From assembly GCA_964348785.1 (NCBI GenBank), contig CAYGDO010000002.1, positions 2,238 through 66,237 of the forward strand: a stretch of 64,000 bases of DNA, written 5' to 3'. The first letter of the stretch is position 1. The number at the start of each line of letters is the position of its first letter. Source of the DNA: an uncultured Candidatus Saccharibacteria bacterium (GTDB lineage: Bacteria > Patescibacteriota > Minisyncoccia > Phycocordibacterales > 2-02-FULL-43-11). The position numbers were made by a program, and so were the translations under genes. Below are positions 2,358-64,000 of the stretch, piece by piece. The notes beneath the pieces were generated by a model. It did not search any database and had not been told where the DNA came from. It was given only the letters and a program-made list of their open reading frames with translations.

Positions 2358-3934
2358 GAATTCATTGCTCTCATCATTTGTTTTGCCACAGCTTCAATCA
2401 CTGGAACGCTAACAGAATTTCCAGCTTGTTTGTATAAGGCCGAATCAGAAATTGTGGGCAAAATATAGTCTTTTGGAAAACCTTGAATTCTAAAACATTC
2501 TAAAGGAGTCAATTTTCTTATTCCTTTTTTATCTTTAATTATTGGCACGTTATGTCCGCCCATTCCCATGTTTGCAGTCAGAGTAGGGCATACACTACTT
2601 TTATTTTCTCTAACGTATTGTCTACGCCATTGATAAACTTTTCCTTCTTCTTTTATAAAATTTTTCAATTTTTCAAACAAAGGTTTACCATTGTAATAAT
2701 ATTTTTCTGGAACATTTTTTTCTAATAAATCAGTAATTTTTGTATTCAATTTGATTGGACTAGGAAACTCAAATCTGTCTGAGTATGACTTATTTCTAAA
2801 GCCTACAATATAGATTCTCTCTCTATTTTGAGGAACATTTCCATATTCCATAGTATTTAAAACCTTAATTTTTACATAATAACCGAGGTCTTTTAAGGCC
2901 TCTTCAATAATCCTAAAAGTTTTTCCTCCATCGTGACTCTTTAGATTTTTTACATTCTCCAAAAGAAAACCCTCAGGCTTTCTAGCTTCTAAAATTCGAG
3001 CAATATCAAAAAACAAATTTCCTCTACCTTTTTCATCATTGAATCCTTGTCTGTATCCTGCGATAGAAAAAGCCTGACAAGGAAAACCTCCCAAAATAAA
3101 ATCGAATTTTGGTAAATCATCGATTCCAATCTTTCTAATATCTTCTACTACCAATTTAGAATCCTTAAAATTTAAATCATAAGTTTCTTTACATTTTTGA
3201 TCAAAATCATTTGCAAAAACTGTTTTAAATCCAGCCCTTTCAAAACCTATACGAATACCTCCAATACCAGCAAATAAATCTAAGGTACGAAAACCATGTT
3301 TATTCTTTTTTTGTTTTTCCTCTTGCGGAACATTTTTTATATTACTTATTACTTGAACGACAACTCCTCTAATTTCAACATCTGTCCTAAATAAAGGGCT
3401 CATATTTGGATTTCTAGGTTCCAATCTGATTCTATTTTTTTCGTAATAAAGTCTTTTCAAAGTTGCCTCATTGTCATCAATAATAGCGACGACGGTCTGA
3501 CCGTTTTCTGCAACAGATTGTTTTTTGATAACAACAATATCACCATCAAATATTCCGTCATCAATCATGCTCTCACCAACAACTCGTAAAGCGTAATAAC
3601 CATTTGAATTTTTTATACTAGGGTTTACTATAGAAATAGTATCCTCATGATTTTCGATTACTTCTATAGGCTGTCCGGCAGCAATTCTTCCTAAAACAGG
3701 AATCTCAATGATTGATTTAATTTCTTTCATCGGAGAAAGGCCTCTGACTGAATTTTCCGACCGAGAAAGAAAGCCCTTGTTTTTTAAAGAAGAAATATGT
3801 TCATGCACAGTGGACACAGCCCTAAGTTTTAATTGTTTTTTTATTTCTTCAAAAGTGGGGGATATGCCATTTTCAGAAAAATAACTGTTAACAAAATCAA
3901 ATACTTGTTTTTGTTTTTTTGTTAAATTAGACAT
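2354..3934 (-). CDS. LexA-like repressor (wHTH + S24 peptidase) fused to DNA (cytosine-5)-methyltransferase (Dcm family)
   Basis: N-terminal 200 aa collinear with LexA: MSNLTKKQKQVFDF...HTH, cleavage site RIAAGQP (Ala-Gly), catalytic Ser in VVGESMIDDG and Lys in EATLKRL; C-terminal 320 aa has C5-MTase motifs I FAGIGG, IV GFPCQAFS, VI ENV, VIII QNRERIYIVG, X GNSVSVPV; single uninterrupted 526-aa ORF. Confidence 0.85.
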   Translation of the reverse strand: MSNLTKKQKQVFDFVNSYFSENGISPTFEEIKKQLKLRAVSTVHEHISSLKNKGFLSRSENSVRGLSPMKEIKSIIEIPVLGRIAAGQPIEVIENHEDTISIVNPSIKNSNGYYALRVVGESMIDDGIFDGDIVVIKKQSVAENGQTVVAIIDDNEATLKRLYYEKNRIRLEPRNPNMSPLFRTDVEIRGVVVQVISNIKNVPQEEKQKKNKHGFRTLDLFAGIGGIRIGFERAGFKTVFANDFDQKCKETYDLNFKDSKLVVEDIRKIGIDDLPKFDFILGGFPCQAFSIAGYRQGFNDEKGRGNLFFDIARILEARKPEGFLLENVKNLKSHDGGKTFRIIEEALKDLGYYVKIKVLNTMEYGNVPQNRERIYIVGFRNKSYSDRFEFPSPIKLNTKITDLLEKNVPEKYYYNGKPLFEKLKNFIKEEGKVYQWRRQYVRENKSSVCPTLTANMGMGGHNVPIIKDKKGIRKLTPLECFRIQGFPKDYILPTISDSALYKQAGNSVSVPVIEAVAKQMMRAMNS

Positions 3935-3989
3935 ATTGATATAAAAAATCTTTAGCGCTACACTTATATTATAACCGAAAAAAAACCGA

Positions 3990-4664
3990 ATGAGTCAGCA
4001 AGTTATCCACAATATAAAAAAATACTGGAAAAAAATTTGTAATTTTTTTCTTAAAAAGGGGTTGCCTTTGTTAATAACTCTTATTTTTCTTATTCCCCCT
4101 TTTCTTAGTTTACATGCTTTTGTATTTTCAGAAATAAGTTTCAAAATAAAAACTGAGAAACCTAATGATGGAATACTAAAAATATCTATACTAAAAGAAG
4201 AGGTGAGATATCCTGCATATCAAGATATGATTTCTAAACTATTACAGATACCTCTAAACCTAAATCACTACAATGTATGTTTCCAAAATAAAAGTTATAA
4301 AAAAGAATCTGGAAAAAAAGAATTTTTACCATTAGAAGACGTCACCTTAATAAAAAGTGGTGATCCAAATAATATAATTGAACAATTTGACATGCTAAAT
4401 GAAGATTATGTCTGTAAAAATATAAATCTTTATGAAACAACAATATCTAAGGGAACATATCAAATAAACTTCAATTCCATACCCCAAGAAATAGAAACTA
4501 AAGTAGATATCACAACCACCCCTACGGCCTCTTTAGCCATAACAGACAAAATCATAGGTGTCACAGCTTTCACTCTAGGATTATATGGTATTTTTTTAAT
4601 AATAAGAGAAGTATATTTAATTATAAGTAAAAGAATAATGGAGCTAAAAAAATCCGACGACTAG
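3990..4664 (+). CDS. Hypothetical membrane protein (N- and C-terminal TM helices)
   Basis: ORF with hydrophobic segments LPLLITLIFLIPPFLSLHAFVF and IIGVTAFTLGLYGIFLIIREVYLII; no recognisable family. Confidence 0.4.
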   Translation: MSQQVIHNIKKYWKKICNFFLKKGLPLLITLIFLIPPFLSLHAFVFSEISFKIKTEKPNDGILKISILKEEVRYPAYQDMISKLLQIPLNLNHYNVCFQNKSYKKESGKKEFLPLEDVTLIKSGDPNNIIEQFDMLNEDYVCKNINLYETTISKGTYQINFNSIPQEIETKVDITTTPTASLAITDKIIGVTAFTLGLYGIFLIIREVYLIISKRIMELKKSDD

Positions 4665-15776: not shown

Positions 15777-16871
15777 ATGACAGCAATCACTCTAATAATA
15801 ATTTTGGGCATATTAATATTCGTCCATGAACTGGGGCATTTTTTAGTTGCCAAAAAATCTGGTATTAGGGTGGATGAATTTGCACTAGGCTTCCCACCTA
15901 AAATTATCTCAAAAAAAGTGGGGGAGACAGAATACAAACTAAACCTCATTCCTTTAGGCGGTTATGTAAAAATTCACGGTGAAGATGGCGATCCAGAAAA
16001 CAACAAAGAAATAGACCCAAAAAGAACATTTGCCAACCAAAAAAACTGGATAAAAATAGCAGTTTTGTCTGCCGGTATATTGGGTAATATAATTTTTGCT
16101 TGGATTTTATTATCTTTCGGTTTTATGTTTGGATTACCTGCTGGAAATGCTGGAATTTTTTCTGATAGAGTGAAAGACAATAGAGTAATCATTCAAGAAG
16201 TTTTAATTGGTTCCCCAGCTGAAAAAATAGGTTTAAAAGTGGGGGATGAAATAATCTCTGCCAATAATGAGAAACAAACCTCAGCCGATAAAAGTCTAAG
16301 CGTAGATGGGGTAAAAAATGTTATAGAAACTTCTAGCGATAAAATAAAATTAGAAATTAAAAGACAAGAAGAAAAATTAAATTTTGAAATTTTACCCGAG
16401 ATCAAAGATGGTGGAGCAAAAAAAGTTGGCATAGCTATGGCTGAATTTGGCACACTCAAGCTACCATTTTATCTAGCGCCAATTGCCAGCGTGAAAGCTA
16501 CATACTTAATGACCAAAGAAACCGCATTTGGCATATCAGGTCTAATTAAAGAAGCTGTTTTAGGAAAAGCCAACTGGTCTTCCGTTTCTGGTCCAATTGG
16601 CATTGCAGGAATGGTTGGAAAGGCCAAAGCCGAAGGTTTTAGTTATCTGATAGTCTTAATTTCTCTCATATCTGTAAATTTAGCGGTCATAAATTTAATA
16701 CCAATACCAGCTCTTGATGGAGGTAGAATATTATTTGTCATAATAGAAGCTATCACAAGAAAACCTATAAAAACTAAAATTGCCCAGACCGTAAACACCA
16801 TTGGATTTTTATTGTTAATGCTTCTTATGCTTGTTGTCACTTATAAAGATATTGTTAAACTTATAAAGTAA
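15777..16871 (+). CDS. rseP: RIP zinc metalloprotease RseP (site-2 protease) with PDZ domain
   Basis: HELGHFLVAKKSGIRV HExxH in TM1, PDZ region GSPAEKIGLKVGDEIISAN, C-terminal LDGG motif. Confidence 0.85.
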   Translation: MTAITLIIILGILIFVHELGHFLVAKKSGIRVDEFALGFPPKIISKKVGETEYKLNLIPLGGYVKIHGEDGDPENNKEIDPKRTFANQKNWIKIAVLSAGILGNIIFAWILLSFGFMFGLPAGNAGIFSDRVKDNRVIIQEVLIGSPAEKIGLKVGDEIISANNEKQTSADKSLSVDGVKNVIETSSDKIKLEIKRQEEKLNFEILPEIKDGGAKKVGIAMAEFGTLKLPFYLAPIASVKATYLMTKETAFGISGLIKEAVLGKANWSSVSGPIGIAGMVGKAKAEGFSYLIVLISLISVNLAVINLIPIPALDGGRILFVIIEAITRKPIKTKIAQTVNTIGFLLLMLLMLVVTYKDIVKLIK

Positions 16872-24727: not shown

Positions 24728-25930
24728 ATGAAAAACCAGAGTAGTATGAACATAATGAGCAAACGAAATTCAATTATTATTATTTTTTTAGTTTTATTAA
24801 CTGGAACGGCTTTTTATTATTCATCCAAAAATATAAACGACGAAATACCCAGTAAAGCTAAAATCGAAGATAATAAAATTAGCTACATATTTTATACCAA
24901 AGATGGTGACATTTTTTCCATAACACCTGATAAATCTTTAACGACAAACTTATCAAAAAAATTAAACCCTGAAGGATTAGTTTCTAGCTCAAAAGGTAAC
25001 AGGATTGCTTACAGGGTAGAATCAACTTCTCAACACGCTATTTATGTAGCCGACGGCGACGGTAGTGATGCTACTCAAATTTTCACAACACCCAATACTG
25101 GATGCGATATAGTTGGAATTTTGGGAGTAGAAAATGATAATAAAAACGTTTTATTCATGTATCTCAATATGACAAACCGAGACGGCATACCATGCATTTC
25201 CAAACCAGGACAAAAAACAGAAGACGGAAATTACTATTACGAAAATGGTGTAGGTCTAAAAAGACTAAAAGATGACTTTTCTCAAAATCTTATGAGTTTT
25301 GATAATGGTAAATTACTTTATGTGACTTATGGCAAAGACAAAGAATTACTTTATGCGACTTATGACAAAGACAAAGAATGGCTAGTCACGATCAATATTT
25401 TTGATTTAAAAACTGAAAAAACGAAAAGCCTTTTTACACTCCCCCCAGAAATACAAAATCAACACCTCTCATTATCTTCTTCAGATCTTTCCGCAAAAAA
25501 TTTCAAAATGGCACTCAGTCTCGCTAATTCTTCTACTAAAGATACTAGTCAAATAACCATATTCGATTCTTCAAATAACACTTATACTCCAGCATCGCCT
25601 CAGGGTGTATTTGCTGAATTCCAAAGATTGTCTGTTTCTCCTAACTTTAAAAACCTAATTTATGTTCATCAGGTTAGAAATAATGAGGAACAATACGTCT
25701 ATAATGTTCAAAATAAAAAAATCCAAGATTTAAATATGGATTTAGGAAATATAATTTGGTTAGACGATTACAACTTATTGTATAGATACCCAGTTATAAA
25801 ATCTTGGCCTGTAAAAGACCATGGAAATTTAATAAAATTTAATATTGAAAATTTTAAAAGGGAGGTATTTTTAGAGACAATATCTGAACTTGTAAATTTC
25901 AACAAGGCAAGCATTCCTTACGGACCTTAA
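24728..25930 (+). CDS. Secreted/anchored beta-propeller (TolB/PD40-like repeat) protein
   Basis: N-terminal TM/signal anchor; repeated ...DG..I.F.....G...IY pattern typical of PD40 blades. Confidence 0.45.
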   Translation: MKNQSSMNIMSKRNSIIIIFLVLLTGTAFYYSSKNINDEIPSKAKIEDNKISYIFYTKDGDIFSITPDKSLTTNLSKKLNPEGLVSSSKGNRIAYRVESTSQHAIYVADGDGSDATQIFTTPNTGCDIVGILGVENDNKNVLFMYLNMTNRDGIPCISKPGQKTEDGNYYYENGVGLKRLKDDFSQNLMSFDNGKLLYVTYGKDKELLYATYDKDKEWLVTINIFDLKTEKTKSLFTLPPEIQNQHLSLSSSDLSAKNFKMALSLANSSTKDTSQITIFDSSNNTYTPASPQGVFAEFQRLSVSPNFKNLIYVHQVRNNEEQYVYNVQNKKIQDLNMDLGNIIWLDDYNLLYRYPVIKSWPVKDHGNLIKFNIENFKREVFLETISELVNFNKASIPYGP

Positions 25931-28921: not shown

Positions 28922-29470
28922 ATGCCAGACAAAATACTGACACCAAAGTTTCTGAACGCAACAATTGCCCAATTGGCTGTTCAACAGGCCATACGAGTTG
29001 TGACGGGGCCAGACTCGCTGACTGGCCTTCTCAAACGTCAGGCCTTCCACATCGTCGTCCTCGGACCCTCAATGAGGGACGACCGCGAAACCGACTACGC
29101 CGACTGGCCGGCCTACCAAATTCAGCCCGCTCTCATCTATGAGCACGGTGTCGGGAAAGGTGAAGGTCTCTGGACCGATAAATACGACGAGGTTGCAAGG
29201 TGCAAAGCCTTGCAACTCTGGCACGGACGCCAAGACAGCGGTACCGACATCGCTCCACATCTACTCTTTCCCGGAGACACCATCTACTGGGGAGGAGTAA
29301 AACGTCAGGGCATCGTCGTAGCCTGCTCGGGAGTCCAGCCTTGGTTCGACCGGATGATCGCCAACCTCGTGGCCGACATGATAATCGGCCTCTCGTACGA
29401 CGCGTGGATGAGAAGTAACGACAGGATGGATGTCGAACGGAAAATACCTGGCGCCGGCTGGATCACCTGA
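28922..29470 (+). CDS. GC-rich gene, possibly GlcG/HbpS-like (DUF336) protein
   Basis: Local GC far above genome background; HIVVLGP... and GGVKRQGIVVACSGVQPWFDRMIANLVADMI loosely fit DUF336 pattern (GG.PI..GG.V.GAIGVSG); long alternative-frame ORFs typical of GC-rich DNA. Confidence 0.4.
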   Translation: MPDKILTPKFLNATIAQLAVQQAIRVVTGPDSLTGLLKRQAFHIVVLGPSMRDDRETDYADWPAYQIQPALIYEHGVGKGEGLWTDKYDEVARCKALQLWHGRQDSGTDIAPHLLFPGDTIYWGGVKRQGIVVACSGVQPWFDRMIANLVADMIIGLSYDAWMRSNDRMDVERKIPGAGWIT

Positions 29471-38469: not shown

Positions 38470-39981
38470 ATGAAAATCATAAAAAAATACAACTTGGAAA
38501 TCGTCGTCTTCTTCTGCGGGGCCATTGTAATGGTTTACGAAATGGTCGGCTCTAGAGTAATAGGGCCATATGTAGGCATATCAACATATGTTTGGACTAG
38601 TTTAATAGGTGTTATCTTAGCAAGCTTAAGTGCGGGGTATTATTTCGGAGGAAATTTAGCAGACAAAAAACCTCAAGTAAAACCCTTGGTCATATTTATT
38701 TTATGCGCATCAATATCGATTTCTTTAGCAACTGTCATAAAAGATTTCGTAGCCATAAAATTATCTTCAGCAAGTTTTTCACTTGAAATAAAAGCGCTAC
38801 TTCTTTCTATAATACTTTTTGCTCCCGCCAGTTTTTTCTTAGGCACCGTCTCTCCTTACGCTGTGAAATTAAAAATATTATCATTGGAAAATGCAGGGAA
38901 AACAGCCGGCAATCTTTACGCCTTATCAACTTTGGGAAGTATCATCGGCACATTTATGGCCGGATTTTACATCATCCCTCACCTTGGATCTACGACGTCT
39001 CTTTTTTTAATTTCTTTCCTACTAATTATTCTGCCTACATTGATCTTAAAAAAAACTGATCTGGAAATAAAAACCCTCCTGTCTTTTTTAGTTTCTATTG
39101 TCATTTTTGCCATATGTATTTTCCTATCCTCAGCAATAAAAATATCTATTCTAGAAGATAAAGACACCGAATATAACAAAATATGGGTCTACGAAAGTAC
39201 ATATCCTTACCCAAACGGTAAAAAAACTATAAACCTGATGAACGACCCTATAGGCACTCAAAGTGCCATGTACATAGATGAGCCGACAGAAATAGTTTTT
39301 GATTATTTAAAATTTTATAATTTGTATGAGCATTTCAAAACAAACACAAAAGAAACCTTAATGATAGGAGGAGCAGCTTATACTTACCCCACACATTTTT
39401 TAGATAAAAATAAAAAAGCCAATATGGATGTAGTTGAAATAGATCCAGGCATGACAGAAATTGCAAAAAAATATTTCCAACTTAAAGACAGTCCGAGACT
39501 TTCTATTTTTCACGAAGATGGCAGAATTTTTTTAAACAATAATAAGAAAAAGTATGATGTAATCTTTCTTGATGCTTATAACTCAGCCCTTTCTGTACCG
39601 TTTCATTTAACAACAATAGAGACAGTAAAAAAAATCTACGATTCTTTGAGTGATGATGGTGTGGTGATGGCCAACGTAATTTCATCTATAAACGGTGAAA
39701 AAGGTAAATTTTTAAGAGCTGAATATAAAACATTTAAAAAAATGTTTCCTCAAATATTATTATTTCCAACATCAGACCAAAAAGATGAAAGTATGGCCCA
39801 AAATATAATGTTAATAGCCTTTAAATCAGACAAAAAAGCATCTTTAACGAGTAAAGATCAAAAAATATCCGCCATGCTTTCAAAAGTATACACAGGAGAA
39901 ATAATTGATGATGCCCCAATTTTAACAGATGATTATGCACCTGTTGAACATTATAGAAAATCAATGCTCAAAAAATCCTGA
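38470..39981 (+). CDS. Spermidine synthase-like domain fused to N-terminal multi-TM domain
   Basis: 7+ TM helices then SpeE-like domain (IGGAAYTYP, VVEIDPGMTEIAKKYF, FHEDGRIFL, YDVIFLDAYNS). Confidence 0.7.
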   Translation: MKIIKKYNLEIVVFFCGAIVMVYEMVGSRVIGPYVGISTYVWTSLIGVILASLSAGYYFGGNLADKKPQVKPLVIFILCASISISLATVIKDFVAIKLSSASFSLEIKALLLSIILFAPASFFLGTVSPYAVKLKILSLENAGKTAGNLYALSTLGSIIGTFMAGFYIIPHLGSTTSLFLISFLLIILPTLILKKTDLEIKTLLSFLVSIVIFAICIFLSSAIKISILEDKDTEYNKIWVYESTYPYPNGKKTINLMNDPIGTQSAMYIDEPTEIVFDYLKFYNLYEHFKTNTKETLMIGGAAYTYPTHFLDKNKKANMDVVEIDPGMTEIAKKYFQLKDSPRLSIFHEDGRIFLNNNKKKYDVIFLDAYNSALSVPFHLTTIETVKKIYDSLSDDGVVMANVISSINGEKGKFLRAEYKTFKKMFPQILLFPTSDQKDESMAQNIMLIAFKSDKKASLTSKDQKISAMLSKVYTGEIIDDAPILTDDYAPVEHYRKSMLKKS

Positions 39982-40105: not shown

Positions 40106-40831
40106 ATGAAGACGAAACTGTTCTTTGCGATACTTTGGTTCAGCATTCAAAACGCTTTCAGTTGGACGTGGCCCGAAGTCAGTATTCGGTCCATGTACGG
40201 TAGCCAATTTCTCGATCCCGGGACCGGTTACGTCATTTATGACAAACCGGTAGTCCAGAGCGATCTGGAAATCGGAATTCCGTTTGGTTTCAGGGTGAAT
40301 GTCCTCAACTCCAAAAGCCTCAATGGAGGATGGGGCGAAACGCTCGGCGACGAAATGGACTACACGCTGGGCTGGAGAGGTGCGATCATCAAGAATTTCG
40401 GTTTGGACGTGTCTGTCACGTTTCTTGACGAATTACATCTTTTCCAAATGGGGGAAGACGACATCTTCTACAGCAGGTTCCATCTCTCGTACACCCATAA
40501 TGAATGGCGGTTTTCAGGAATTTGGGAGAACTATACCACTTTCTCCAGTGGTCACCTCACAGGAGGGGATTTGGTCGGACTTGGTGTTGAGCGAGAGTTC
40601 GCCCTTGTAGGCGAGTGGCTAATCCTCGAAGCAGAAACGGCCACCCTCTACAACGCGGGGGCCCTTCATCGGGAGGGTTTTTTTCAGAGGGGAATGATCA
40701 ATCTGGGATGGGAAATTTCTAAAGGGCTCACAATAATTGCCCCCAGAGTGGACTTCTATGTTCCGTTCGAAAATCATCACCACAAAAGGAACGACGCTGT
40801 GGTGTTCATGGGACTGAAGTATCGGTTCTGA
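40106..40831 (+). CDS. GC-rich secreted protein with beta-barrel-like C-terminus (ends GLKYRF)
   Basis: Signal-peptide-like N-terminus, aromatic-rich alternating pattern, terminal Phe typical of OM beta-barrels; GC content well above flanks. Confidence 0.5.
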   Translation: MKTKLFFAILWFSIQNAFSWTWPEVSIRSMYGSQFLDPGTGYVIYDKPVVQSDLEIGIPFGFRVNVLNSKSLNGGWGETLGDEMDYTLGWRGAIIKNFGLDVSVTFLDELHLFQMGEDDIFYSRFHLSYTHNEWRFSGIWENYTTFSSGHLTGGDLVGLGVEREFALVGEWLILEAETATLYNAGALHREGFFQRGMINLGWEISKGLTIIAPRVDFYVPFENHHHKRNDAVVFMGLKYRF

Positions 40832-42026: not shown

Positions 42027-42344
42027 CTATTTATTAAATTTTTTTTCAATAAATCGCGCAAAAGAATTGTCGGGAGAACAACCAGCATATACCTTAGTCC
42101 ATCCAAAACCAACAATAGGGATACCGCCATAAGATTTACACTCCTCTTCAGAGTATGTTTTTTTATAAAAAACATACGTGCCTCCGTTATCTGGACAAAC
42201 ATCACCAAAACATACAGTTTTAATTTTGTATGGATTTATTATATAGGCCAATAAAAGTATTAAAATAATAGAAAATAAAATTTTTAAAAATTTTTTCATA
42301 AAGGGAATTATAGCATTTAAGAAGGGGAGTCGGGGGGGGTTCAA
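42027..42344 (-). CDS. Small secreted Cys-rich protein (likely starts at internal MKKFLKIL)
   Basis: Signal/TM then CFGDVCPDNGG...CKSYGG...GCSPDN. Confidence 0.35.
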   Translation of the reverse strand: MNPPRLPFLNAIIPFMKKFLKILFSIILILLLAYIINPYKIKTVCFGDVCPDNGGTYVFYKKTYSEEECKSYGGIPIVGFGWTKVYAGCSPDNSFARFIEKKFNK

Positions 42345-42650
42345 ATCCCATTAGGGTCTAAAAATTACAAAACAAAAACAGAGCATCCACTCTGTTTTTG
42401 GTAATTTGTGACCCTAATGGGAATTTTGAAACTTACAGTTTCAGTACACCTTTCCCATTTGCTTATAATAAGAATTACTCGCAAATAAGGGAGAAGGTTT
42501 TCAAATCCCATACGCAAGTGAATCAATTCACTTGCTTAGGGTCATTAATAAAAATGGCTTTGGAAAAAACCAAAGCTAATTTTTATACTAATGACCCTAA
42601 TTAGTGAAAATTGGAATCTACTTTTAAAGCAAATGAAAGTTTTTAAAGTC

Positions 42651-42992
42651 TTATTTAGTTAAGTATATATATGAGTAGAAAAGTATAAAAAACATTACAA
42701 AATATATAAGTGCATACAAACCATATATCTTGTGAGGGGTATATGCCACTTTCTTAGCTTCAAGATAGTCTTCTTGATGTTTTTTATCAAAATATTCAAG
42801 AATTAAAGAAATTGTAAGTCCAAAAGTTATTATTATCCAAAACCACAAATTCTCGTTACCTCCAAACGATTTAGCAAAAACATCTGGAGAAAAAGACAAC
42901 AACAAGAACGTGTTAACAAAAATAAGGCTGACTATTAATATAATTTTAATTTTTCTACGCACGGATGATAACAGCAATAAGATTAACCACAT
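42651..42992 (-). CDS. Small multi-TM membrane protein
   Basis: Hydrophobic ORF; overlaps next ORF by 38 nt in a different frame. Confidence 0.3.
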   Translation of the reverse strand: MWLILLLLSSVRRKIKIILIVSLIFVNTFLLLSFSPDVFAKSFGGNENLWFWIIITFGLTISLILEYFDKKHQEDYLEAKKVAYTPHKIYGLYALIYFVMFFILFYSYIYLTK

Positions 42993-43221
42993 TCAAAATA
43001 ACAGAGATTATTCCCAATGTCATACCTGCCATTCCTAATGCCCTAGAACCTCCTTTTCTGGCCTGGAATCCAAATACAGTAGCTATTATTGCCGCTATCA
43101 ATCCGACTACTATCAACAAAGAAGGAGATAATTTAATATACAAAATCTTTGACCAAACCCAAGGAAAAAAGAATATGGTCGAAATAATAATACTTAAAAT
43201 GCCTTTCCATGACGCTTTCAT
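42955..43221 (-). CDS. Small multi-TM membrane protein
   Basis: Hydrophobic ORF within tRNA-Glu-adjacent repeat region. Confidence 0.3.
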   Translation of the reverse strand: MKASWKGILSIIISTIFFFPWVWSKILYIKLSPSLLIVVGLIAAIIATVFGFQARKGGSRALGMAGMTLGIISVILNVVNLIAVIIRA

Positions 43222-43875
43222 AATTTGTTCAGTCAGTTTTATTAATAATATTTATTATAACACTATAGATAATATTTTATTCTTAATAAGGTTTATACCC
43301 CTAATGGGATTTTCCTTCGACTCTCAGCTAGCCGTCGCTCGAAACAGTCACATTCGCTCTGCTAAGCTCAGTACTTCCTCGCTCTCGCTTGGTCGCTAGG
43401 CACCGACTCGCTTGTTTTTTCTGCTGAAAAAACATAGCTCCGTCGTTCAAATCCCATACGCAAAGCGAGCAGTCGCTTTGCTTAGGGTCATTAATAAAAA
43501 TGGCATAACTAATGGGAATTTTGCCCGCGACTAAAACTTTTTCGTCAAAAAGTTTTGTCTGGGCACCGACTCGCGCTTCGCCGAAACGGCTCAATGCGCT
43601 CCGTCGTTCAAATCCCATTAGGATCTAAAAATTACAAAACAAAAACAGAGCATCCACTCTGTTTTTGGTAATTTGTGACCCTAATAGAAACAGGGACTTG
43701 GTCACAAATCATTTTGTGCCGTCGCACAAAATGTTCGCGACCCCAGCTCAGCATTTTGCGAAACGTAAAATATGCCTGCGCTTTTCAAATCCCATATGCA
43801 AAGCGAGCAGTCGCTTTGCTTAGGGTCATTAATAAAAATGGCTTTGGAAAAAACCAAAGCTCATTTTTATACTAA

Positions 43876-43950
43876 TGACCCTAATGGGATTTGAACCCAT
43901 GTTACCGGATTGAAAATCCGATGTCCTAGACCAGGCTAGACGATAGGGCC
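43876..43950 (-). tRNA. tRNA-Glu (anticodon UUC)
   Basis: Minus strand GGCCCTA-TC-GTCT-AGCCTGGTCTA-GGAC-A-TCGGA-TTTTCAA-TCCGG-TAAC-ATGGG-TTCAAAT-CCCAT-TAGGGTC-A folds as cloverleaf; collinear with E. coli tRNA-Glu. Confidence 0.85.
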
Positions 43951-44084
43951 AGCACCATAATTATAGCAAATTATCAATAACCAATTTTCAAATTTTCATT
44001 GAAATTGCTAAAAGCTAGTGGCTAATAGCTAGGCGCTAGTATATACCATTTTTATGAAAAAAGGCAAAAAAAATCCCCAAGAGA

Positions 44085-44290
44085 GGGGACCCAAAAGGGA
44101 AGGAAGGTCAGGCCGGAAGGGCTTCAGCGACTGCATCAAGGACGATGCCCTCGTCAAGATCACATCCATCACGAGGATACTCCCTGAAAAAAGCGCTGAC
44201 GGCCCAAACTGCGCCTTCACGGCCATGGAGACCAAACCGTTGACACAGCCACACACAGTAGGCGACAGGGTTCATACTAGTTCAATAATA
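44085..44290 (+). ncRNA. GC-rich non-coding-looking patch with SRP-RNA-like GGUCAGGCCGGAAGG motif (speculative)
   Basis: 200 nt of high GC in AT-rich context; overlapping ORFs on both strands look non-protein-like; GGTCAGGCCGGAAGG resembles SRP RNA domain IV GGUCAGGUCCGGAAGG. Confidence 0.2.
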
Positions 44291-44344
44291 TACCTCAAAA
44301 ACTCAAAAAAACAAGTTTGAGTGGTATTTTATACAAACCGTAAA

Positions 44345-50591: not shown

Positions 50592-50936
50592 CTACCAGGC
50601 GTATCGGCCGTTGAGTCCCTTCCATCCCGGGTCGGCTACCCGGGCGAGGAGCAGATCGCCATCGATCCGCTCGTTGTTGGAGCAGTGCACCATCGCACCG
50701 CGCCCGTTGGGGGCCAACTCCCGGAGATCACAATCGGGGATATAGGAATCAGTCGCCCGACGGATCCACACCTGGCCGTCCATGGTTACCACCGTCTGTG
50801 TCGAATTGTTGGAGTCATGACGGCCCCAATCACTCTCCTCGGGACTCGCGATGACCACGTCGTTGGACTTGGGCAATCCTGTCACATGAACGAACCCCAG
50901 TGCCCGAAGGGTCTCAGCCTGTGTTAAATTCATAAA
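50592..50936 (-). CDS. GC-rich hypothetical protein (start at MNLTQAE with GGAGG RBS)
   Basis: GGAGG 8 nt upstream of ATG; followed (minus strand) by stem-loop gggtctgac-acag-gtcggaccc + TTTTTA terminator at 50534-50575; GC content far above background. Confidence 0.35.
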   Translation of the reverse strand, partial: FMNLTQAETLRALGFVHVTGLPKSNDVVIASPEESDWGRHDSNNSTQTVVTMDGQVWIRRATDSYIPDCDLRELAPNGRGAMVHCSNNERIDGDLLLARVADPGWKGLNGRYAW

Positions 50937-51202
50937 AGCGCCTCCAACTTTCCGACAGATACTTGCCCACAATCTAAACTTGAATGCCTGGTTCAAGAAA
51001 AGATATTGGCTTAACCAAAAAGGGGTTTCGAAGCCCTTTAAGTTGGTCTGGGATGGTAGCAAATCTATGCCCCTGTCCCAAAGTACCTATTGTCAATATT
51101 ATAACATATATAGGAGAAAAAGCAAGGAATCTGCCTCCCCGTAAAACAGGAAGCCTGTCACGGGGTAGGCACGCTTTACGTCTCCTGTTTTTGAAAACTG
51201 TC

Positions 51203-60457: not shown

Positions 60458-60766
60458 ATGAACACAATTTTAAAAATCGGCGGTTTTATATTAATAGCCA
60501 TAGGATCTATAGGTCTTTTTTTACCTTTTATCCAGGGATTATTTCTTATAGCCGTTGGAGTGTACTTTATCTCAAGAGTTGATAAGGAATTTGAACAAAG
60601 TGTTATCAAATTTATAGAAAAAGGTAAAAATAAATTTCCAAGATATAAAAAATATTTTGAATCGATAGAAAGAATCTATATTAAATTAGTTAAATGGGGT
60701 AAAAAAGAAAAGGGAAGTGAACAAGAAGAAAAAACCGAAACTCAGCAAGAAAACAAAGAACTGTAA
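60458..60766 (+). CDS. DUF454 (YbaN-like) small membrane protein
   Basis: IGGFILIAIGSIGLFLPFIQGLFLIAVGVYFISRVDKEF matches YbaN pattern G..G..LP..P...F.LLA...F.R.S. Confidence 0.55.
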   Translation: MNTILKIGGFILIAIGSIGLFLPFIQGLFLIAVGVYFISRVDKEFEQSVIKFIEKGKNKFPRYKKYFESIERIYIKLVKWGKKEKGSEQEEKTETQQENKEL

Positions 60767-60772
60767 TTCCAG

Positions 60773-60846
60773 GCATCCTTAGCTCAGTTGGTTAGAGCGT
60801 GCGATTCACATTCGCAAGGTCGGAGGTTCGAATCCTCCAGGGTGCA
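60773..60846 (+). tRNA. tRNA-Val (anticodon CAC)
   Basis: GCATCCT-TA-GCTC-AGTTGGTTA-GAGC-G-TGCGA-TTCACAT-TCGCA-AGGTC-GGAGG-TTCGAAT-CCTCC-AGGGTGC-A cloverleaf. Confidence 0.85.
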
Positions 60847-61150
60847 CTAGCAACCTAACAAGCAATCTGCATTGCTTGTGTGGAGGATTCGAAAAGGTTC
60901 TCCCATATCGAGTCCGCGAGATGGGAAACCTGTACTGACCCTGTAAGGGTCGATCCCTACAGGATGCATCAGACTGAACAAGCAAACGATTTTGCTTGTG
61001 TTAGGGATCGAAGACCTTTTGAGCCTAAAATTGATTTTAAGAAAATTTTAGCCAAAAGGTGTACTGAAACTGTAAGTTTCGATATCCCTCCATTCCATGG
61101 TGCACCAGACTGAGCAAGCAAACGTCCGCCAGCTGGCGGATTGATTGCTT
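60847..61150. repeat. tRNA-Val-downstream repeat array (hairpins NcaagcaaN..ttgcttgNg, T-arm-like fragments, repeated cagactga(a/g)caagcaaacg)
   Basis: Three related hairpin units; segment ggattcgaaaaggttctcccatatcgagtccgcgagatgggaaac is homologous to the element inserted in tRNA-Pro (63641-63753). Confidence 0.45.
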
Positions 61151-61192
61151 TAAATATCTTTTATACAATAGCAACATAATTTAAATAAAAAT

Positions 61193-61552
61193 ATGTTCAA
61201 AAAATTAACAGAATTTTCATACAAAAGAAACTGGAAAGAAGCGGTTGGATTTTATCTATCATATTTACTTATGGGCCTCATTTTAGGTTTTATTGCTGGT
61301 GCATTATTTGGAATAATCATGCCTAATAGAAATTTAAGCGAGGGTCTAAAAATTGGAGTGATCGTTGGCGCAATATATACTTTAATAATTTCTTCTATCG
61401 TATTAGTACAAAGAAAACTGTACAAAAATTTCGGATGGATCATCTTAACTTTGTTAAGCGTCATCTTAACAATTTTTGGTGGTGCGATACTTGGATTAAT
61501 AATACCAGCTTTTATGACCACCAGAGGAATCGGAACAGAAAGTTTGAAATAG
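61193..61552 (+). CDS. Small multi-TM membrane protein
   Basis: Three hydrophobic helices; no family assigned. Confidence 0.4.
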   Translation: MFKKLTEFSYKRNWKEAVGFYLSYLLMGLILGFIAGALFGIIMPNRNLSEGLKIGVIVGAIYTLIISSIVLVQRKLYKNFGWIILTLLSVILTIFGGAILGLIIPAFMTTRGIGTESLK

Positions 61553-61574
61553 TGGCTAATTATTTCCGTTTTCA

Positions 61575-61622
61575 ACTATATATAAATCATTGACTAAAAT
61601 GCTTTTTTGTGATATCATTAAA
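61575..61622 (+). promoter_or_regulatory. 48-bp direct repeat copy 1 carrying sigma70-like promoter (TTGACT-17-TGaTATCAT)
   Basis: ctatatataaatcattgactaaaatgcttttttgtgatatcattaaaa; 47/48 identical to copy at 62068. Confidence 0.5.
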
Positions 61623-61723
61623 AAAGAATCCCTACTCGTATGGGTAGGTGGCTCACCAGGAGCAACGGGGCAATATTTCCCGCCTCGCACAAGGGAAATG
61701 GAAATGCAAATTGAACAGGTCGT

Positions 61724-61984
61724 ATGACCAACACACAGCAGTACCGGATCGTCGGAGGGCCGTCTCGTGAGGAACTTTTCGACGCCCTACGTCTTCGGCA
61801 TGAAGGAAGAAAGGTTTCCTTCAACGGACAGCCCACACGGACGTTTGAAGTGTCCGTAGACAACATTGGCGTCGAAGACGGAAGTGGGCACAGATGGTTG
61901 CTGTGCCTCTCAAACCCGTCAGGCTTTTTCGAAGGGTACTTCGATACCGCCAAACGGGAAGGGGTTCTGAGGCCGAAGAACTAG
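61724..61984 (+). CDS. GC-rich small protein (86 aa) in cassette 1
   Basis: Downstream of promoter repeat with ~95-nt structured leader; plausible globular sequence QYRIVGGPSREELFDALRLRHEGRKVSF...; followed by hairpin + T-run. Confidence 0.4.
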   Translation: MTNTQQYRIVGGPSREELFDALRLRHEGRKVSFNGQPTRTFEVSVDNIGVEDGSGHRWLLCLSNPSGFFEGYFDTAKREGVLRPKN

Positions 61985-62067
61985 ACATTCCACCGGCAAC
62001 ACGGGGCGCTTCACTCTCACGAGTGGTGCGTCCTTTTTCTTTTCTGTTTTATTTTATGATTTTTTAC

Positions 62068-62115
62068 TATATATAAATCATTGACTAAAATCCTTTTTTG
62101 TGATATCATTAAAAC
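62068..62115 (+). promoter_or_regulatory. 48-bp direct repeat copy 2 carrying the same promoter
   Basis: ctatatataaatcattgactaaaatccttttttgtgatatcattaaaa; followed by ~95-nt leader with 10-bp stem ttgcctgtag...ctacaggcaa. Confidence 0.5.
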
Positions 62116-62211
62116 TGGTTAGTTTTTTGTCATTTTGCCTGTAGAAATGGCACCCTTATACAAGGCAAAAGGGGTGTCAAACTACAGGCAAACATCAAAT
62201 CTATATCGGCA

Positions 62212-62766
62212 ATGAAAAATACGCTGGCATTGGTAATGGCAGTATTAGTCTGGACGTCTTCGTCCTTCGGGCAAGTTTTTGAACTCAAGCTCGAAGATAG
62301 TCAGGGAGGATTGTACACTCTCAATGATACAATCTCAAGGATGGAAATCGTCCCCGGAACCCCGCCCAACGAACTTCAATTTATCACGATGGGAACGCTC
62401 CAGTTGAAATTCTCATCAGCCTTTTCCGGACCGACCCTTCAAAAAGACGTAATGTACGAAGGCGTGCTCTCTGGAGGAGACCCGGGGTGGTGGACGCCAT
62501 ACATACAGTTAAATGAGCCGTGGGACTTCATGGTCTCAAAATTTGCGGGTCAACCCGTAACATTCTGGTTCGACGAATTGTCCCTCGACGACGTGCATAC
62601 GTCGATCGTGGTGGCTGAATTTTTTGCAATAAAATCAGAGACCGAGTGGCTACGCGGGAACCTCCAATACGGCGTCAGTGCCGTCCCCGAACCCGAAACC
62701 TATGCACTCGGAGTCGGGATCGGCCTCATCGCCTTCGGCGTCGTGCGACGCCGTTTCAAGAAGTAG
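62212..62766 (+). CDS. GC-rich secreted protein with PEP-CTERM sorting signal
   Basis: Signal peptide MKNTLALVMAVLVWTSSSFGQ; C-terminus VPEPETYALGVGIGLIAFGVVRRRFKK = PEP motif + TM helix + Arg cluster. Confidence 0.6.
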   Translation: MKNTLALVMAVLVWTSSSFGQVFELKLEDSQGGLYTLNDTISRMEIVPGTPPNELQFITMGTLQLKFSSAFSGPTLQKDVMYEGVLSGGDPGWWTPYIQLNEPWDFMVSKFAGQPVTFWFDELSLDDVHTSIVVAEFFAIKSETEWLRGNLQYGVSAVPEPETYALGVGIGLIAFGVVRRRFKK

Positions 62767-62862
62767 ACGGTATTGTACGTCATTCGCACACGACGTACGC
62801 AGGGGGAAGGATTCACATCCGACCCCTTTTTTATTTTCAAACAATAGACTAAAATCATAAAA

Positions 62863-63540
62863 ATGCTTGCTAAGATAAAAAATAATATTTTCCCCATTAT
62901 CTATTTACTGTGGTTAATTTTTACCGTTCTTATTACCTTCAGTGTTAGCAAATTGAGTAATGACAACATTACCCATATAGTAATACTGATTATTCTGGTC
63001 TTATCTCTTTTTGCCTTTAAATTATTTAAACCTAAAAATCCTAAACGATTTTTTATCATTTCCTCTGTCATCTTGGCAACATTGTGCGAAGGGGCATATA
63101 TGATCAGCAAACCGGTACGCGAATCCCTTATAATCACAAAAAATTCAACTTTCATTGAATTTATACAAAATTATGCAATTGATTTGACCTTTACTGTACC
63201 AGCATATATTTTAATCTTTTTTGTCATTTGGAAACTTATTAATAAATATAACTACTCAACTTTTGAATACATTTTCTTGATGGCATTTGGACAAGCACTT
63301 GGGGATGGAAACGCATTTTTCTTTGCCAATCCTTTTATGTTGGTATTTATCCCATACATAATGCTAAATTATCACGCAATGAATATATTTCCTTATTTAA
63401 AAATCAGAGACTTTCTTAAAGATATTCCAAAAAGTAACTCCAAATGGAAATACCCGGTAACTGTTCTTTCATTGTTCGTAACTTACATTTTTGCTGGAGG
63501 TATAATACACATTGTCGCCAAAACTATCGGTTTGGAATAG
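62863..63540 (+). CDS. Polytopic membrane protein, hypothetical
   Basis: 6 predicted TM segments; no family assigned. Confidence 0.45.
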   Translation: MLAKIKNNIFPIIYLLWLIFTVLITFSVSKLSNDNITHIVILIILVLSLFAFKLFKPKNPKRFFIISSVILATLCEGAYMISKPVRESLIITKNSTFIEFIQNYAIDLTFTVPAYILIFFVIWKLINKYNYSTFEYIFLMAFGQALGDGNAFFFANPFMLVFIPYIMLNYHAMNIFPYLKIRDFLKDIPKSNSKWKYPVTVLSLFVTYIFAGGIIHIVAKTIGLE

Positions 63541-63568
63541 AATAAAAACTTCTAATATTGATAAATAA

Positions 63569-63639
63569 CGGGGCGTAATATAGTGGTCGTATACACCCTT
63601 CGGGAGGGTGAGGCCCGAGTTCGATTCTCGGCGCCCCGA
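63569..63639 (+). tRNA. tRNA-Pro (anticodon CGG)
   Basis: CGGGGCG-TA-ATAT-AGTGGTC-GTAT-A-CACCC-TTCGGGA-GGGTG-AGGC-CCGAG-TTCGATT-CTCGG-CGCCCCG-A cloverleaf, U33, G37. Confidence 0.8.
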
Positions 63640-63640
63640 A

Positions 63641-63773
63641 TGAACGAAGTGAGTGAAGAGGGCGAGCGAGCAAACTGCTTTGCTCGCGTCCAGAATCGAA
63701 AGGTTTTTCCTTATCGAGTCTGCGAGATGGAAAAACATCTGGCTACGTGGTAGCCGATTCTCGGCGCCCCGAA
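63641..63773 (+). repeat. 113-bp element inserted after tRNA-Pro plus 19-bp direct duplication of tRNA-Pro 3' end (CGATTCTCGGCGCCCCGAA at 63622-63640 and 63755-63773)
   Basis: Perfect 19-bp direct repeat; intervening sequence homologous to tRNA-Val-downstream repeats (hairpin gagcgagcaaa-ctgc-tttgctcgc; ...gaatcgaaaggtttttccttatcgagtctgcgagatggaaaaac). Confidence 0.55.
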
Positions 63774-63792
63774 TAAAAGGTATAATTAAAAA

Positions 63793-64000
63793 ATGATAAT
63801 AGTAGATGTGGAATCATCAGGAATAGACTCGGGAAAATGTTCACTTCTTTCAGTTGGTGCAATTGATTTTGACACACCAGGAAGACAATTTTATGAAGAA
63901 TGCAGAGTGTTTGATGGAGCTCATATAGAAAAGGAGGCTCTAAATGTAAATGGATTTACAGAGGAACAGGCAACCGACAAAAATAGACAAAGCGACAAAG
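63793..64000 (+). CDS. DEDD-family 3'-5' exonuclease (DnaQ-like), 3'-truncated by window end
   Basis: IIVDVESSGID = Exo I motif D-x-E-(T/S)-(T/S)-G. Confidence 0.55.
   Translation, partial: MIIVDVESSGIDSGKCSLLSVGAIDFDTPGRQFYEECRVFDGAHIEKEALNVNGFTEEQATDKNRQSDK

Follow-up and report, generated by a model that had tools for sequence, protein, structure and literature searches.

A 64,000-nucleotide (nt) stretch of contig CAYGDO010000002.1 (assembly GCA_964348785.1) from an uncultured Candidatus Saccharibacteria bacterium, hereafter called the window, carries two short GC-rich genes side by side, cassette 1 and cassette 2, each preceded by a copy of the same 55-nt direct repeat. These are probably two adjacent, independently transcribed single-gene units that resulted from ordinary gene acquisition and the duplication of a promoter. 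Each unit would consist of a sigma-70 promoter, a structured 5′ leader, a GC-rich open reading frame (ORF) and an intrinsic terminator, placed in the AT-rich chromosome of a Patescibacterium of Paceibacteria/Staskawiczbacteria-like affinity. The repeat would natively be the promoter of cassette 2, and a copy of it would have replaced the native promoter of cassette 1. The units themselves would have arrived by horizontal transfer.

The repeat had been described in an original prediction, made from the letters of this stretch by themselves, as a 48-bp direct repeat bearing a promoter. Both statements hold, with coordinates that were one base off. The 48-mer is present exactly twice in the window (61576-61623 and 62067-62114, 47/48 identical) and was matched in 0 of 100 shuffles, and the top two sigma-70-like sites in the region 60700-63900 lie in the two copies (TTGACT, a 17-nt spacer and TG with TATCAT; 10/12 matches). 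When the ungapped similarity was extended, a unit of 55 nt with a sharp end on both sides was obtained (52/55 identical):

61569..61623, forward strand: repeat copy 1, predicted promoter module of cassette 1, with an upstream A/T-rich tract, the -35 element TTGACT at 61590-61595, a 17-nt spacer and the TG-extended -10 element TATCAT at 61613-61618, reaching to about +5
62060..62114, forward strand: repeat copy 2, predicted promoter module of cassette 2, with the -35 element at 62081-62086 and the -10 element at 62104-62109

Judging from these sites, transcription would start from both promoters. Both genes would share the same strong TG-extended promoter, so that gene-specific control would be left to two different leaders.

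The origin of the shared promoter was traced through relatives of the two genes. A HMMER scan of 1.84 billion representative proteins returned a single true homologue of cassette 2, the protein P0059 (49% identity), which is encoded on the AT-rich contig L046 among different neighbour genes. The DNA that L046 and the window have in common is restricted to the unit from promoter to terminator (L046 5926-6677, window 62072-62837). Its parts in the window, and their identity to L046, are as follows:

62060..62114, forward strand: 55-nt repeat stretch, 80% identity
62115..62211, forward strand: leader of cassette 2
62134-62192, forward strand: long stable hairpin of this leader (-36.7 kcal/mol, z -5.35), 96% identity (55/57), with one C-to-U change by which the pair is kept as G-U
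62147-62215, forward strand: upstream ORF of 22 codons in the leader, MAPLYKAKGVSNYRQTSNLYRQ*, the stop of which overlaps the main ATG (ATGA)
62212..62766, forward strand: cassette 2 ORF of 184 amino acids (aa), with a signal peptide, a mature domain without known homology (55% DNA identity) and a PEP-CTERM-like tail at about 62680-62766 (78% identity)
62212-62274, forward strand: Sec-type signal peptide, MKNTLALVMAVLVWTSSSFGQ
62774..62834, forward strand: 3′ untranslated region (3′-UTR), with a hairpin at 62774-62799 and a terminator hairpin at 62801-62828 followed by a T run (z -3.5)
62767-62837, forward strand: 3′-UTR as aligned with L046, 85% identity, the similarity ending right after the T run

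The promoter core (from about 62072, with the -35 element, spacer and -10 element) is conserved in L046 save one substitution and one single-base deletion, and the promoter was assigned as native to cassette 2 because its homologue on L046 has it too. P0059 has this upstream ORF joined in frame to its main ORF. The coding sequences have diverged to a rate of nonsynonymous substitution (dN) of 0.47 and a rate of synonymous substitution (dS) of 2.2-2.4 (dN/dS about 0.2), with synonymous sites saturated. The non-coding ends of the unit are thus far better conserved than its synonymous sites, which would reflect either a strong constraint on regulatory RNA or a recent exchange of the flanks. Leader 2 gave only a spurious match to mir-192 in Rfam 15 (26 bits, threshold 54). 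The AlphaFold (AF2) model of cassette 2, built from two sequences, had a predicted local distance difference test score (pLDDT) of 33 and was unusable.

Cassette 1 shows a chimeric junction. Similarity to the L046 promoter spans 61581-61622, similarity to the closest cassette-1 leader (L033) starts at 61613, and the overlap is TATCATTAAA. Since the L046-like and the L033-like similarities meet in this overlap, cassette 1 carries a copy of the promoter of cassette 2 joined to its own leader, the replacement having its junction in the -10/+1 region (61613-61622). The single variable base of the 48-mer is G in the cassette 1 copy and in L046 and C in the cassette 2 copy, which supports the direction of copying. 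Relatives of cassette 1 elsewhere have other promoters than that of the repeat. Therefore, the portable promoter suggested in the original prediction stands in one respect, since the L046 homologue carries promoter, leader and terminator in another context and a copy appears to have displaced the promoter of cassette 1; the capture-site logic that came with it is not supported.

The composition of both ORFs, earlier called alien to the AT-rich host, was borne out. The host sequence has about 34% GC. The ORFs of cassettes 1 and 2 have a GC content of 0.55 and 0.51 and a GC content at third codon positions (GC3) of 0.63 and 0.61, against 0.27-0.42 and 0.19-0.37 for the other window ORFs of at least 120 aa, with the exception of three more GC-rich ORFs. 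The window thus contains at least five single-gene GC-rich islands with GC3 values of 0.60-0.66, namely the two cassettes and the following:

28922..29470, forward strand: island A, an orphan ORF of 182 aa, GC3 0.64, with its own promoter-like site and terminator
40106..40831, forward strand: island B, an ORF of 241 aa with a signal peptide and the end ...GLKYRF, GC3 0.60, with its own promoter and terminator
50592..50933, reverse strand: island C, an ORF of 113 aa with its ATG at 50933 after GGAGG, a leader of about 150 nt and a terminator, adjoining recR (GC3 0.66, computed on the longer ORF 50592-51062)

Islands A, B and C each have a promoter-like site, a leader and a terminator of their own, and their promoters are unlike that of the repeat. 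The five island proteins are mutually unrelated. Their only family matches in Pfam, NCBIfam, PHROG and PADLOC were that of the PEP-CTERM tail of cassette 2 and a weak PHROG match of island B (E 0.025); islands A-C were also without a convincing match in the PDB. The scanned neighbours of the islands are of housekeeping type, comprising glutamine synthetase (glnA), peroxiredoxin (ahpC), an HxlR regulator (hxlR), a spermidine-synthase-like membrane protein, RecR and peptidoglycan-binding proteins, and the genes downstream of the window (in L001) are likewise ordinary, with housekeeping domains or none. An additional single-gene GC-rich island with its own promoter and terminator was seen at 44054-44320. 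The ...GLKYRF end of island B resembles an outer-membrane beta-barrel signature. GC-rich single-gene islands were also seen in other AT-rich Patescibacteria contigs (L048 1-1200 and 2950-3800, L005 499-1152, L006 2113-2727, L004 2485-2757), several of them adjoining tRNA genes, so that the phenomenon is not peculiar to the genome of the window.

A well-supported structured RNA of the locus is the leader of cassette 1. The features of this unit downstream of the promoter are:

61623..61729, forward strand: structured 5′ leader of cassette 1, match to model R1 with 70.5 bits (E 1e-11)
61631-61648, forward strand: stem P1, CCTACTC-GTAT-GGGTAGG
61651-61663, forward strand: stem P2, GCTC-ACCAG-GAGC
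61666-61700, forward strand: H-type pseudoknot, S1 61666-61671 with 61682-61687 and S2 61674-61681 with 61693-61700
61718-61729, forward strand: start-codon hairpin P5, GGTC-GTAT-GACC, with the ATG (61724-61726) in its loop and 3′ strand
61724..61984, forward strand: cassette 1 ORF, 86 aa, GC3 0.63, member of a small-protein family
62003..62045, forward strand: predicted intrinsic terminator of cassette 1, a GC-rich hairpin at 62003-62034 followed by a T-rich tract (-20.3 kcal/mol, z -2.8)

The architecture of P1, P2, pseudoknot and P5, about 100 nt in length, is common to all 44 upstream regions of the cassette-1 family. In a MAFFT alignment, the positions of P1, P2 and P5 pair in 95.1% of cases, compared to 76.6% in column shuffles and 34-50% with slid partners, and compensatory two-sided changes are present in 14 of 14 pairs; P1 and P5 were recovered unaided by RNAalifold. 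The pseudoknot can be formed in 44/44 leaders by constrained search, with widely different stem sequences and a mean score of 28.3 versus 8.1 for shuffles. The covariance model R1, built from P1, P2 and P5, recovers all training loci as well as the untrained second copy in L035, and had no other match in 368 kb, the rest of the window included. Covariation and the fixed site upstream of one gene family thus place the leader in the generic class of cis-regulatory structured 5′ leaders. A strong stem had been predicted for each of the two leaders of about 95 nt (about 96-100 nt as found here). This applies to leader 2 by virtue of its hairpin; leader 1 alone is not exceptionally stable (z -0.9), yet its structure is conserved.

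The tetraloops of P1 and P5 are identical in 32/44 leaders, and GTAT, GTAC, GGAT, GGAC and GTTAT each co-occur in both hairpins. Permutation within clades gave p values of about 0.001 and 0.035 for the loop identity in two clades, shared ancestry being uncorrected. Two readings of the hairpins were rejected: since G-U pairs are found in many P1 stems, P1 is an RNA structure rather than a DNA operator palindrome, and loop-loop kissing between P1 and P5 was ruled out by the GGAT and GGAC variants, which are not self-complementary. The matched loops suggest that one trans factor reads both hairpins. Leader 1 would gate the initiation of translation by hiding or exposing the AUG, in response either to a factor that recognises the G-N-A-Y loops shared by P1 and P5, for which the encoded 86-aa protein is a candidate, or to a ligand bound by the pseudoknot. 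In being multi-stem and covarying, with a fixed site in the 5′-UTR and the AUG in the last hairpin, it resembles riboswitches with an H-type pseudoknot and ribosomal-protein or phage operators. It differs from these in matching no family of Rfam 15 (zero matches, even at E up to 10), in having two hairpins with the same tetraloop that change in step between lineages, and in belonging to a gene family almost confined to metagenome-assembled genomes (MAGs) of Patescibacteria.

The protein of cassette 1 has 57 homologues in the protein collection, located at 43 genomic loci, of which 41 are labelled Patescibacteria or unclassified bacteria and two Gammaproteobacteria. Neither this widespread Patescibacteria family nor the conservation of its structured leader had been noticed in the original prediction. 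The motifs GPSREELFDALRLRHE, EDGSG..W and R.G are shared within the family, which has invariant residues. An AF2 model predicts one helix and six strands with a mean pLDDT of 85; this predicted fold had no significant match in the PDB or BFVD, and a profile search of PDB sequences was also empty. No conserved partner gene was found across the loci, and a tRNA gene inside the 3-kb flanks was present in about 9 of 43 loci, without any rule. The closest relatives (L003, L005, L006, L008, L009, L010 and others) are genes with a GC content of 0.50-0.61 in AT-richer flanks, and distant relatives have a GC content equal to that of their host. In 8/8 of the closest loci examined, the stop codon is followed by a GC-rich hairpin and a run of T, without any conservation at sequence level.

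Several side observations concern the same family and its translation starts. L035 contains two tandem family genes (2953-3381 and 3631-3993) with the leader motif before each, and in L025 a GC-rich ORF with PSREEL (2348-2719), possibly a divergent paralogue, lies directly upstream of the cassette-1 homologue. GGAGG precedes island C and many GC-type relatives of cassette 1, and AT-type cassette-1 genes start inside the palindrome CATCGTACGATG. A Shine-Dalgarno sequence is absent at the host-type starts that were read (61193, 62863 and others) and at cassette 2 (62212).

Cassette 2 would be a Sec-exported surface protein, held by its PEP-CTERM-like C-terminal helix and basic tail. The Sec-type signal peptide stated in the original prediction is present. 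The textbook PEP-CTERM motif stated along with it is supported in part: the C-terminus VPEPETYALGVGIGLIAFGVVRRRFKK passes PF07589 marginally (21.0 bits, gathering cut-off 20.7) and fails TIGR02595 (12.5 bits, cut-off 16; 13.1 bits for P0059), which in formal terms is the refuting outcome that the prediction had named for itself. Eleven NCBIfam PEP-CTERM models match this C-terminus, all under their cut-offs. As in PEP-CTERM/exosortase (EpsH) systems, the protein combines a signal peptide, a novel mature domain and, at the extreme C-terminus, the PEP motif (VPEP), a hydrophobic helix and a basic cluster (terminal RRRFKK) (MKNTLALVMAVLVWTSSSFGQ...VPEPETYALGVGIGLIAFGVVRRRFKK*), and the tail is kept in P0059.

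PEP-CTERM proteins have been described as confined to bacteria with an outer membrane, at a median of 8 copies per genome, together with a cognate EpsH and exopolysaccharide genes (Haft et al., PMC1569441). The present case differs, apart from the score below the TIGR02595 cut-off, in the number of such proteins and in the sorting enzyme. A regular-expression scan of all window ORFs and of L001-L051, about 370 kb of Patescibacteria DNA, returned the tails of cassette 2 and its homologue only, so that several paralogous PEP-CTERM proteins per genome were not seen in the sequence scanned. PF09721 had no match in 38470-39981 and 62863-63540, two of the three multi-pass membrane proteins of the window (the third being 15777-16871). 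A literature search returned no paper linking exosortase with Patescibacteria; one paper mentioning PEP-CTERM and the candidate phyla radiation was not used. As no exosortase was seen among the membrane proteins scanned, the most likely role of the tail is that of a simple anchor in the membrane. Patescibacteria are not known to possess an outer membrane. The occurrence of a PEP-CTERM-like protein in such a lineage suggests either transfer from an outer-membrane bacterium, which may be the one on which the episymbiont lives, or a route of sorting that has so far escaped recognition.

The ORF directly downstream of cassette 2 (62863-63540) encodes a protein of 225 aa with six membrane helices and without a Pfam match. 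The residues E76, D107, E135, D148 and H171 are invariant in its family, which consists mostly of unnamed metagenome sequences, the named members being from one Candidatus Staskawiczbacteria MAG and one Ozemobacteraceae MAG. Its candidacy as a hidden exosortase was ruled out, as the family has neither an invariant Cys nor an invariant Arg.

How the units came to the locus has to be weighed together with the age of the islands. L052, from a genome with 81-87% DNA identity to the window, contains island B in a similar neighbourhood, with dN 0.084, dS 1.05 and dN/dS 0.08; flanking host genes have dS 1.0-1.3 and dN 0.05-0.09. These rates mark island B as a genuine gene that is subject to purifying selection and was inherited with its neighbours; its foreign composition has lasted through a divergence equal to theirs. 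The high GC content of the islands may be due to slow decay from a very GC-rich source or may be kept by selection. An account in which the islands are not recent imports, in which selection on mRNA structure or stability or a special translation regime maintains their GC content, and in which the promoter duplication was local and unlinked to mobility, is unlikely in our view. It is favoured by island B itself, by the near-equal GC3 of five unrelated islands (0.60-0.66), by the GC content of GC-type cassette-1 genes, which exceeds that of the flanks in nearly every host (flank GC 34% to 55%), and by the host-adapted look of cassette 2 and islands A and B, which have AT-rich promoters and, like the host genes read, no Shine-Dalgarno sequence. 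It is disfavoured by the unrelated gene contexts of cassette 2 and its homologue, by the lack of conserved neighbours in the cassette-1 family, and by distant cassette-1 relatives of ordinary host GC, so that neither protein nor leader requires a high GC content. Moreover, a GC3 of about 0.6 after a dS of about 1 could equally be reached if the donor was very GC-rich and amelioration is still partial. An artefact, in which the assembly is chimeric or GC-rich genes for non-coding RNA were mistaken for ORFs, is hardly credible. GC-rich DNA does yield long chance ORFs, and several overlapping antisense ORFs are listed there, but the locus is identical in two independent assemblies and lies on a 170-kb contig in the NCBI record, AT-rich sequence borders the islands on either side, invariant residues and a confidently predicted fold are found for the cassette-1 family, and dN/dS is about 0.2 for cassette 2 and 0.08 for island B.

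The remaining account goes back to the integron-like logic of the original prediction, in which the repeat is a site for the capture of foreign genes. Here the 55-nt unit would be both recombination site and promoter; circular or linear DNA with the unit and cassette 1 would have recombined into the unit before cassette 2, by a Campbell-type event or driven by homology after uptake, so that the insert came to be flanked by two copies, and cassettes would accumulate in tandem. The order of repeat, cassette 1, terminator, repeat and cassette 2 is as expected after one crossover within the repeat, the left edge of the repeat coincides with that of the unit common with L046, the cassette-2 flanks are better conserved than synonymous sites, as homology arms would be, and several cassette-1 relatives lie in runs of GC-rich blocks with short AT-rich dips between them. 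We nevertheless judge this account improbable. The further copies of the repeat that the prediction asked to be sought were not found: there are two in the window, no exact copy of the 55-nt unit exists in the other loci examined, the promoter core and the leader-2 hairpin have zero copies in JGI metagenome contigs, and the cassette-2 3′-UTR hairpin has zero copies in IMG/VR. Additionally, islands A, B and C and the cassette-1 relatives have unrelated promoters, the cassette-1 junction inside the -10/+1 region fits a simple promoter replacement, and no integrase, transposase or other recombinase was found in the genes scanned, which were the island-flanking genes and the genes downstream of the window as a subset of the ORFs. 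Furthermore, 55 bp is short for efficient homologous recombination. The likeness to integrons (IntI, attI/attC and the common promoter Pc) thus lies in the tandem order of small units, each with one gene of foreign composition, and in a sequence that recurs at the cassette boundaries. In contrast to integrons, no IntI was found in these genes, the repeat is placed 5′ and contains a promoter instead of being an attC-type imperfect palindrome at the 3′ end of promoterless cassettes, and each cassette has its own promoter and terminator, the repeat being shared by two units only.

Phage morons are independent transcription units spread by horizontal transfer (PMC3594210). The units resemble them as single genes with their own sigma-70-type promoter and factor-independent terminator, atypical composition, unrelated neighbours and varying contexts. 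They differ in lying outside a prophage, with housekeeping flanks and no significant PHROG match, in carrying long conserved structured leaders, and in that two of them share one duplicated promoter.

Acquisition of the two genes by ordinary transfer, together with duplication of the cassette-2 promoter, remains the explanation we prefer, and gene transfer is frequent among Patescibacteria, mostly within the phylum, with competence as a proposed route (PMC12455944). A number of points weigh against it. The promoters and terminators are consensus matches only, and just two sequences enter the comparison of cassette 2. A donor was identified neither for cassette 2 nor for islands A-C, and no empty site could be defined: homologues of the flanking 225-aa membrane protein were traced to contigs, and as synteny is lost in these nearest relatives, the borders of the insertion are not definable. 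Since island B has diverged like its host neighbours and is still GC-rich, recent acquisition, as suggested in the original prediction for cassette 2, is doubtful and not established for the islands. GC-type cassette-1 genes are GC-richer than their flanks nearly always, even at a host GC of 46-55%, and selection for high GC accounts for this excess, and for the dS of island B, no less well than recent transfer does. With regard to the proposed control of cassette 1, its protein is not basic and lacks a recognisable RNA-binding fold, which makes autoregulation by this protein a guess, and the unpaired nucleotides of leader 1 differ between GC-type and AT-type genes, which is unusual for a metabolite-binding pocket.

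A bolder combination of these elements is also conceivable. Leader 1, with two hairpins of matching G-N-A-Y loops, a short hairpin, an H-type pseudoknot and the start-codon hairpin, would be a new Patescibacteria-specific class of regulatory RNA, acting as a riboswitch or as an operator for its small protein. The GC-rich units from promoter to terminator would then form a pool of exchangeable cassettes, traded by naturally competent Patescibacteria via recombination through the conserved promoter/leader and terminator modules, of which the 55-nt unit would be a scar. Taken as a whole, this combination is speculative and we regard it as unlikely.

Further repeats of the window were noted that are separate from the two units. 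Behind each of the genes for tRNA-Val and tRNA-Pro (60773-61141 and 63569-63773) lies a GC-rich insert, beyond which the tRNA 3′ end is present as a copy; at 63757-63773 this copy agrees exactly over 17 nt, and at about 61088-61112 it is degenerate. A very stable fold is predicted for the 290 nt that come after tRNA-Val (z -7.6). Both inserts share TCGAGTCYGCGAGATGG (60908 and 63714) and had no Rfam match, and the same layout was seen in other Patescibacteria contigs (L048 1-191, L003 2626-2850). The inserts look like small integration scars or tRNA-linked elements. In the region 42339-43951, at least five fragments of the 3′ half of tRNA-Glu (GTTCAAATCCCAT...) are found with 76-104-nt repeats, in opposite orientation to the intact tRNA-Glu (43875-43951, reverse strand), which suggests repeated integration and excision at tRNA-Glu. 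Moreover, a 33-nt unit in two tandem copies with 94% identity lies at 25311-25376 within the ORF 24728-25930.

Current ideas are not overturned by these results, and the integron-like hypothesis, the source of the striking look of the locus, is unsupported. Patescibacteria are mostly uncultured bacteria with tiny genomes, and their gene regulation is almost uncharted. The self-contained GC-rich units show single genes with their regulatory signals added to streamlined AT-rich genomes. Further study is most deserved by the conserved leader RNA that goes with the cassette-1 family, and in second place by the unusual conservation of the cassette-2 flanks. As a well-supported structured RNA, leader 1 offers a concrete and testable entry to post-transcriptional control in Patescibacteria.

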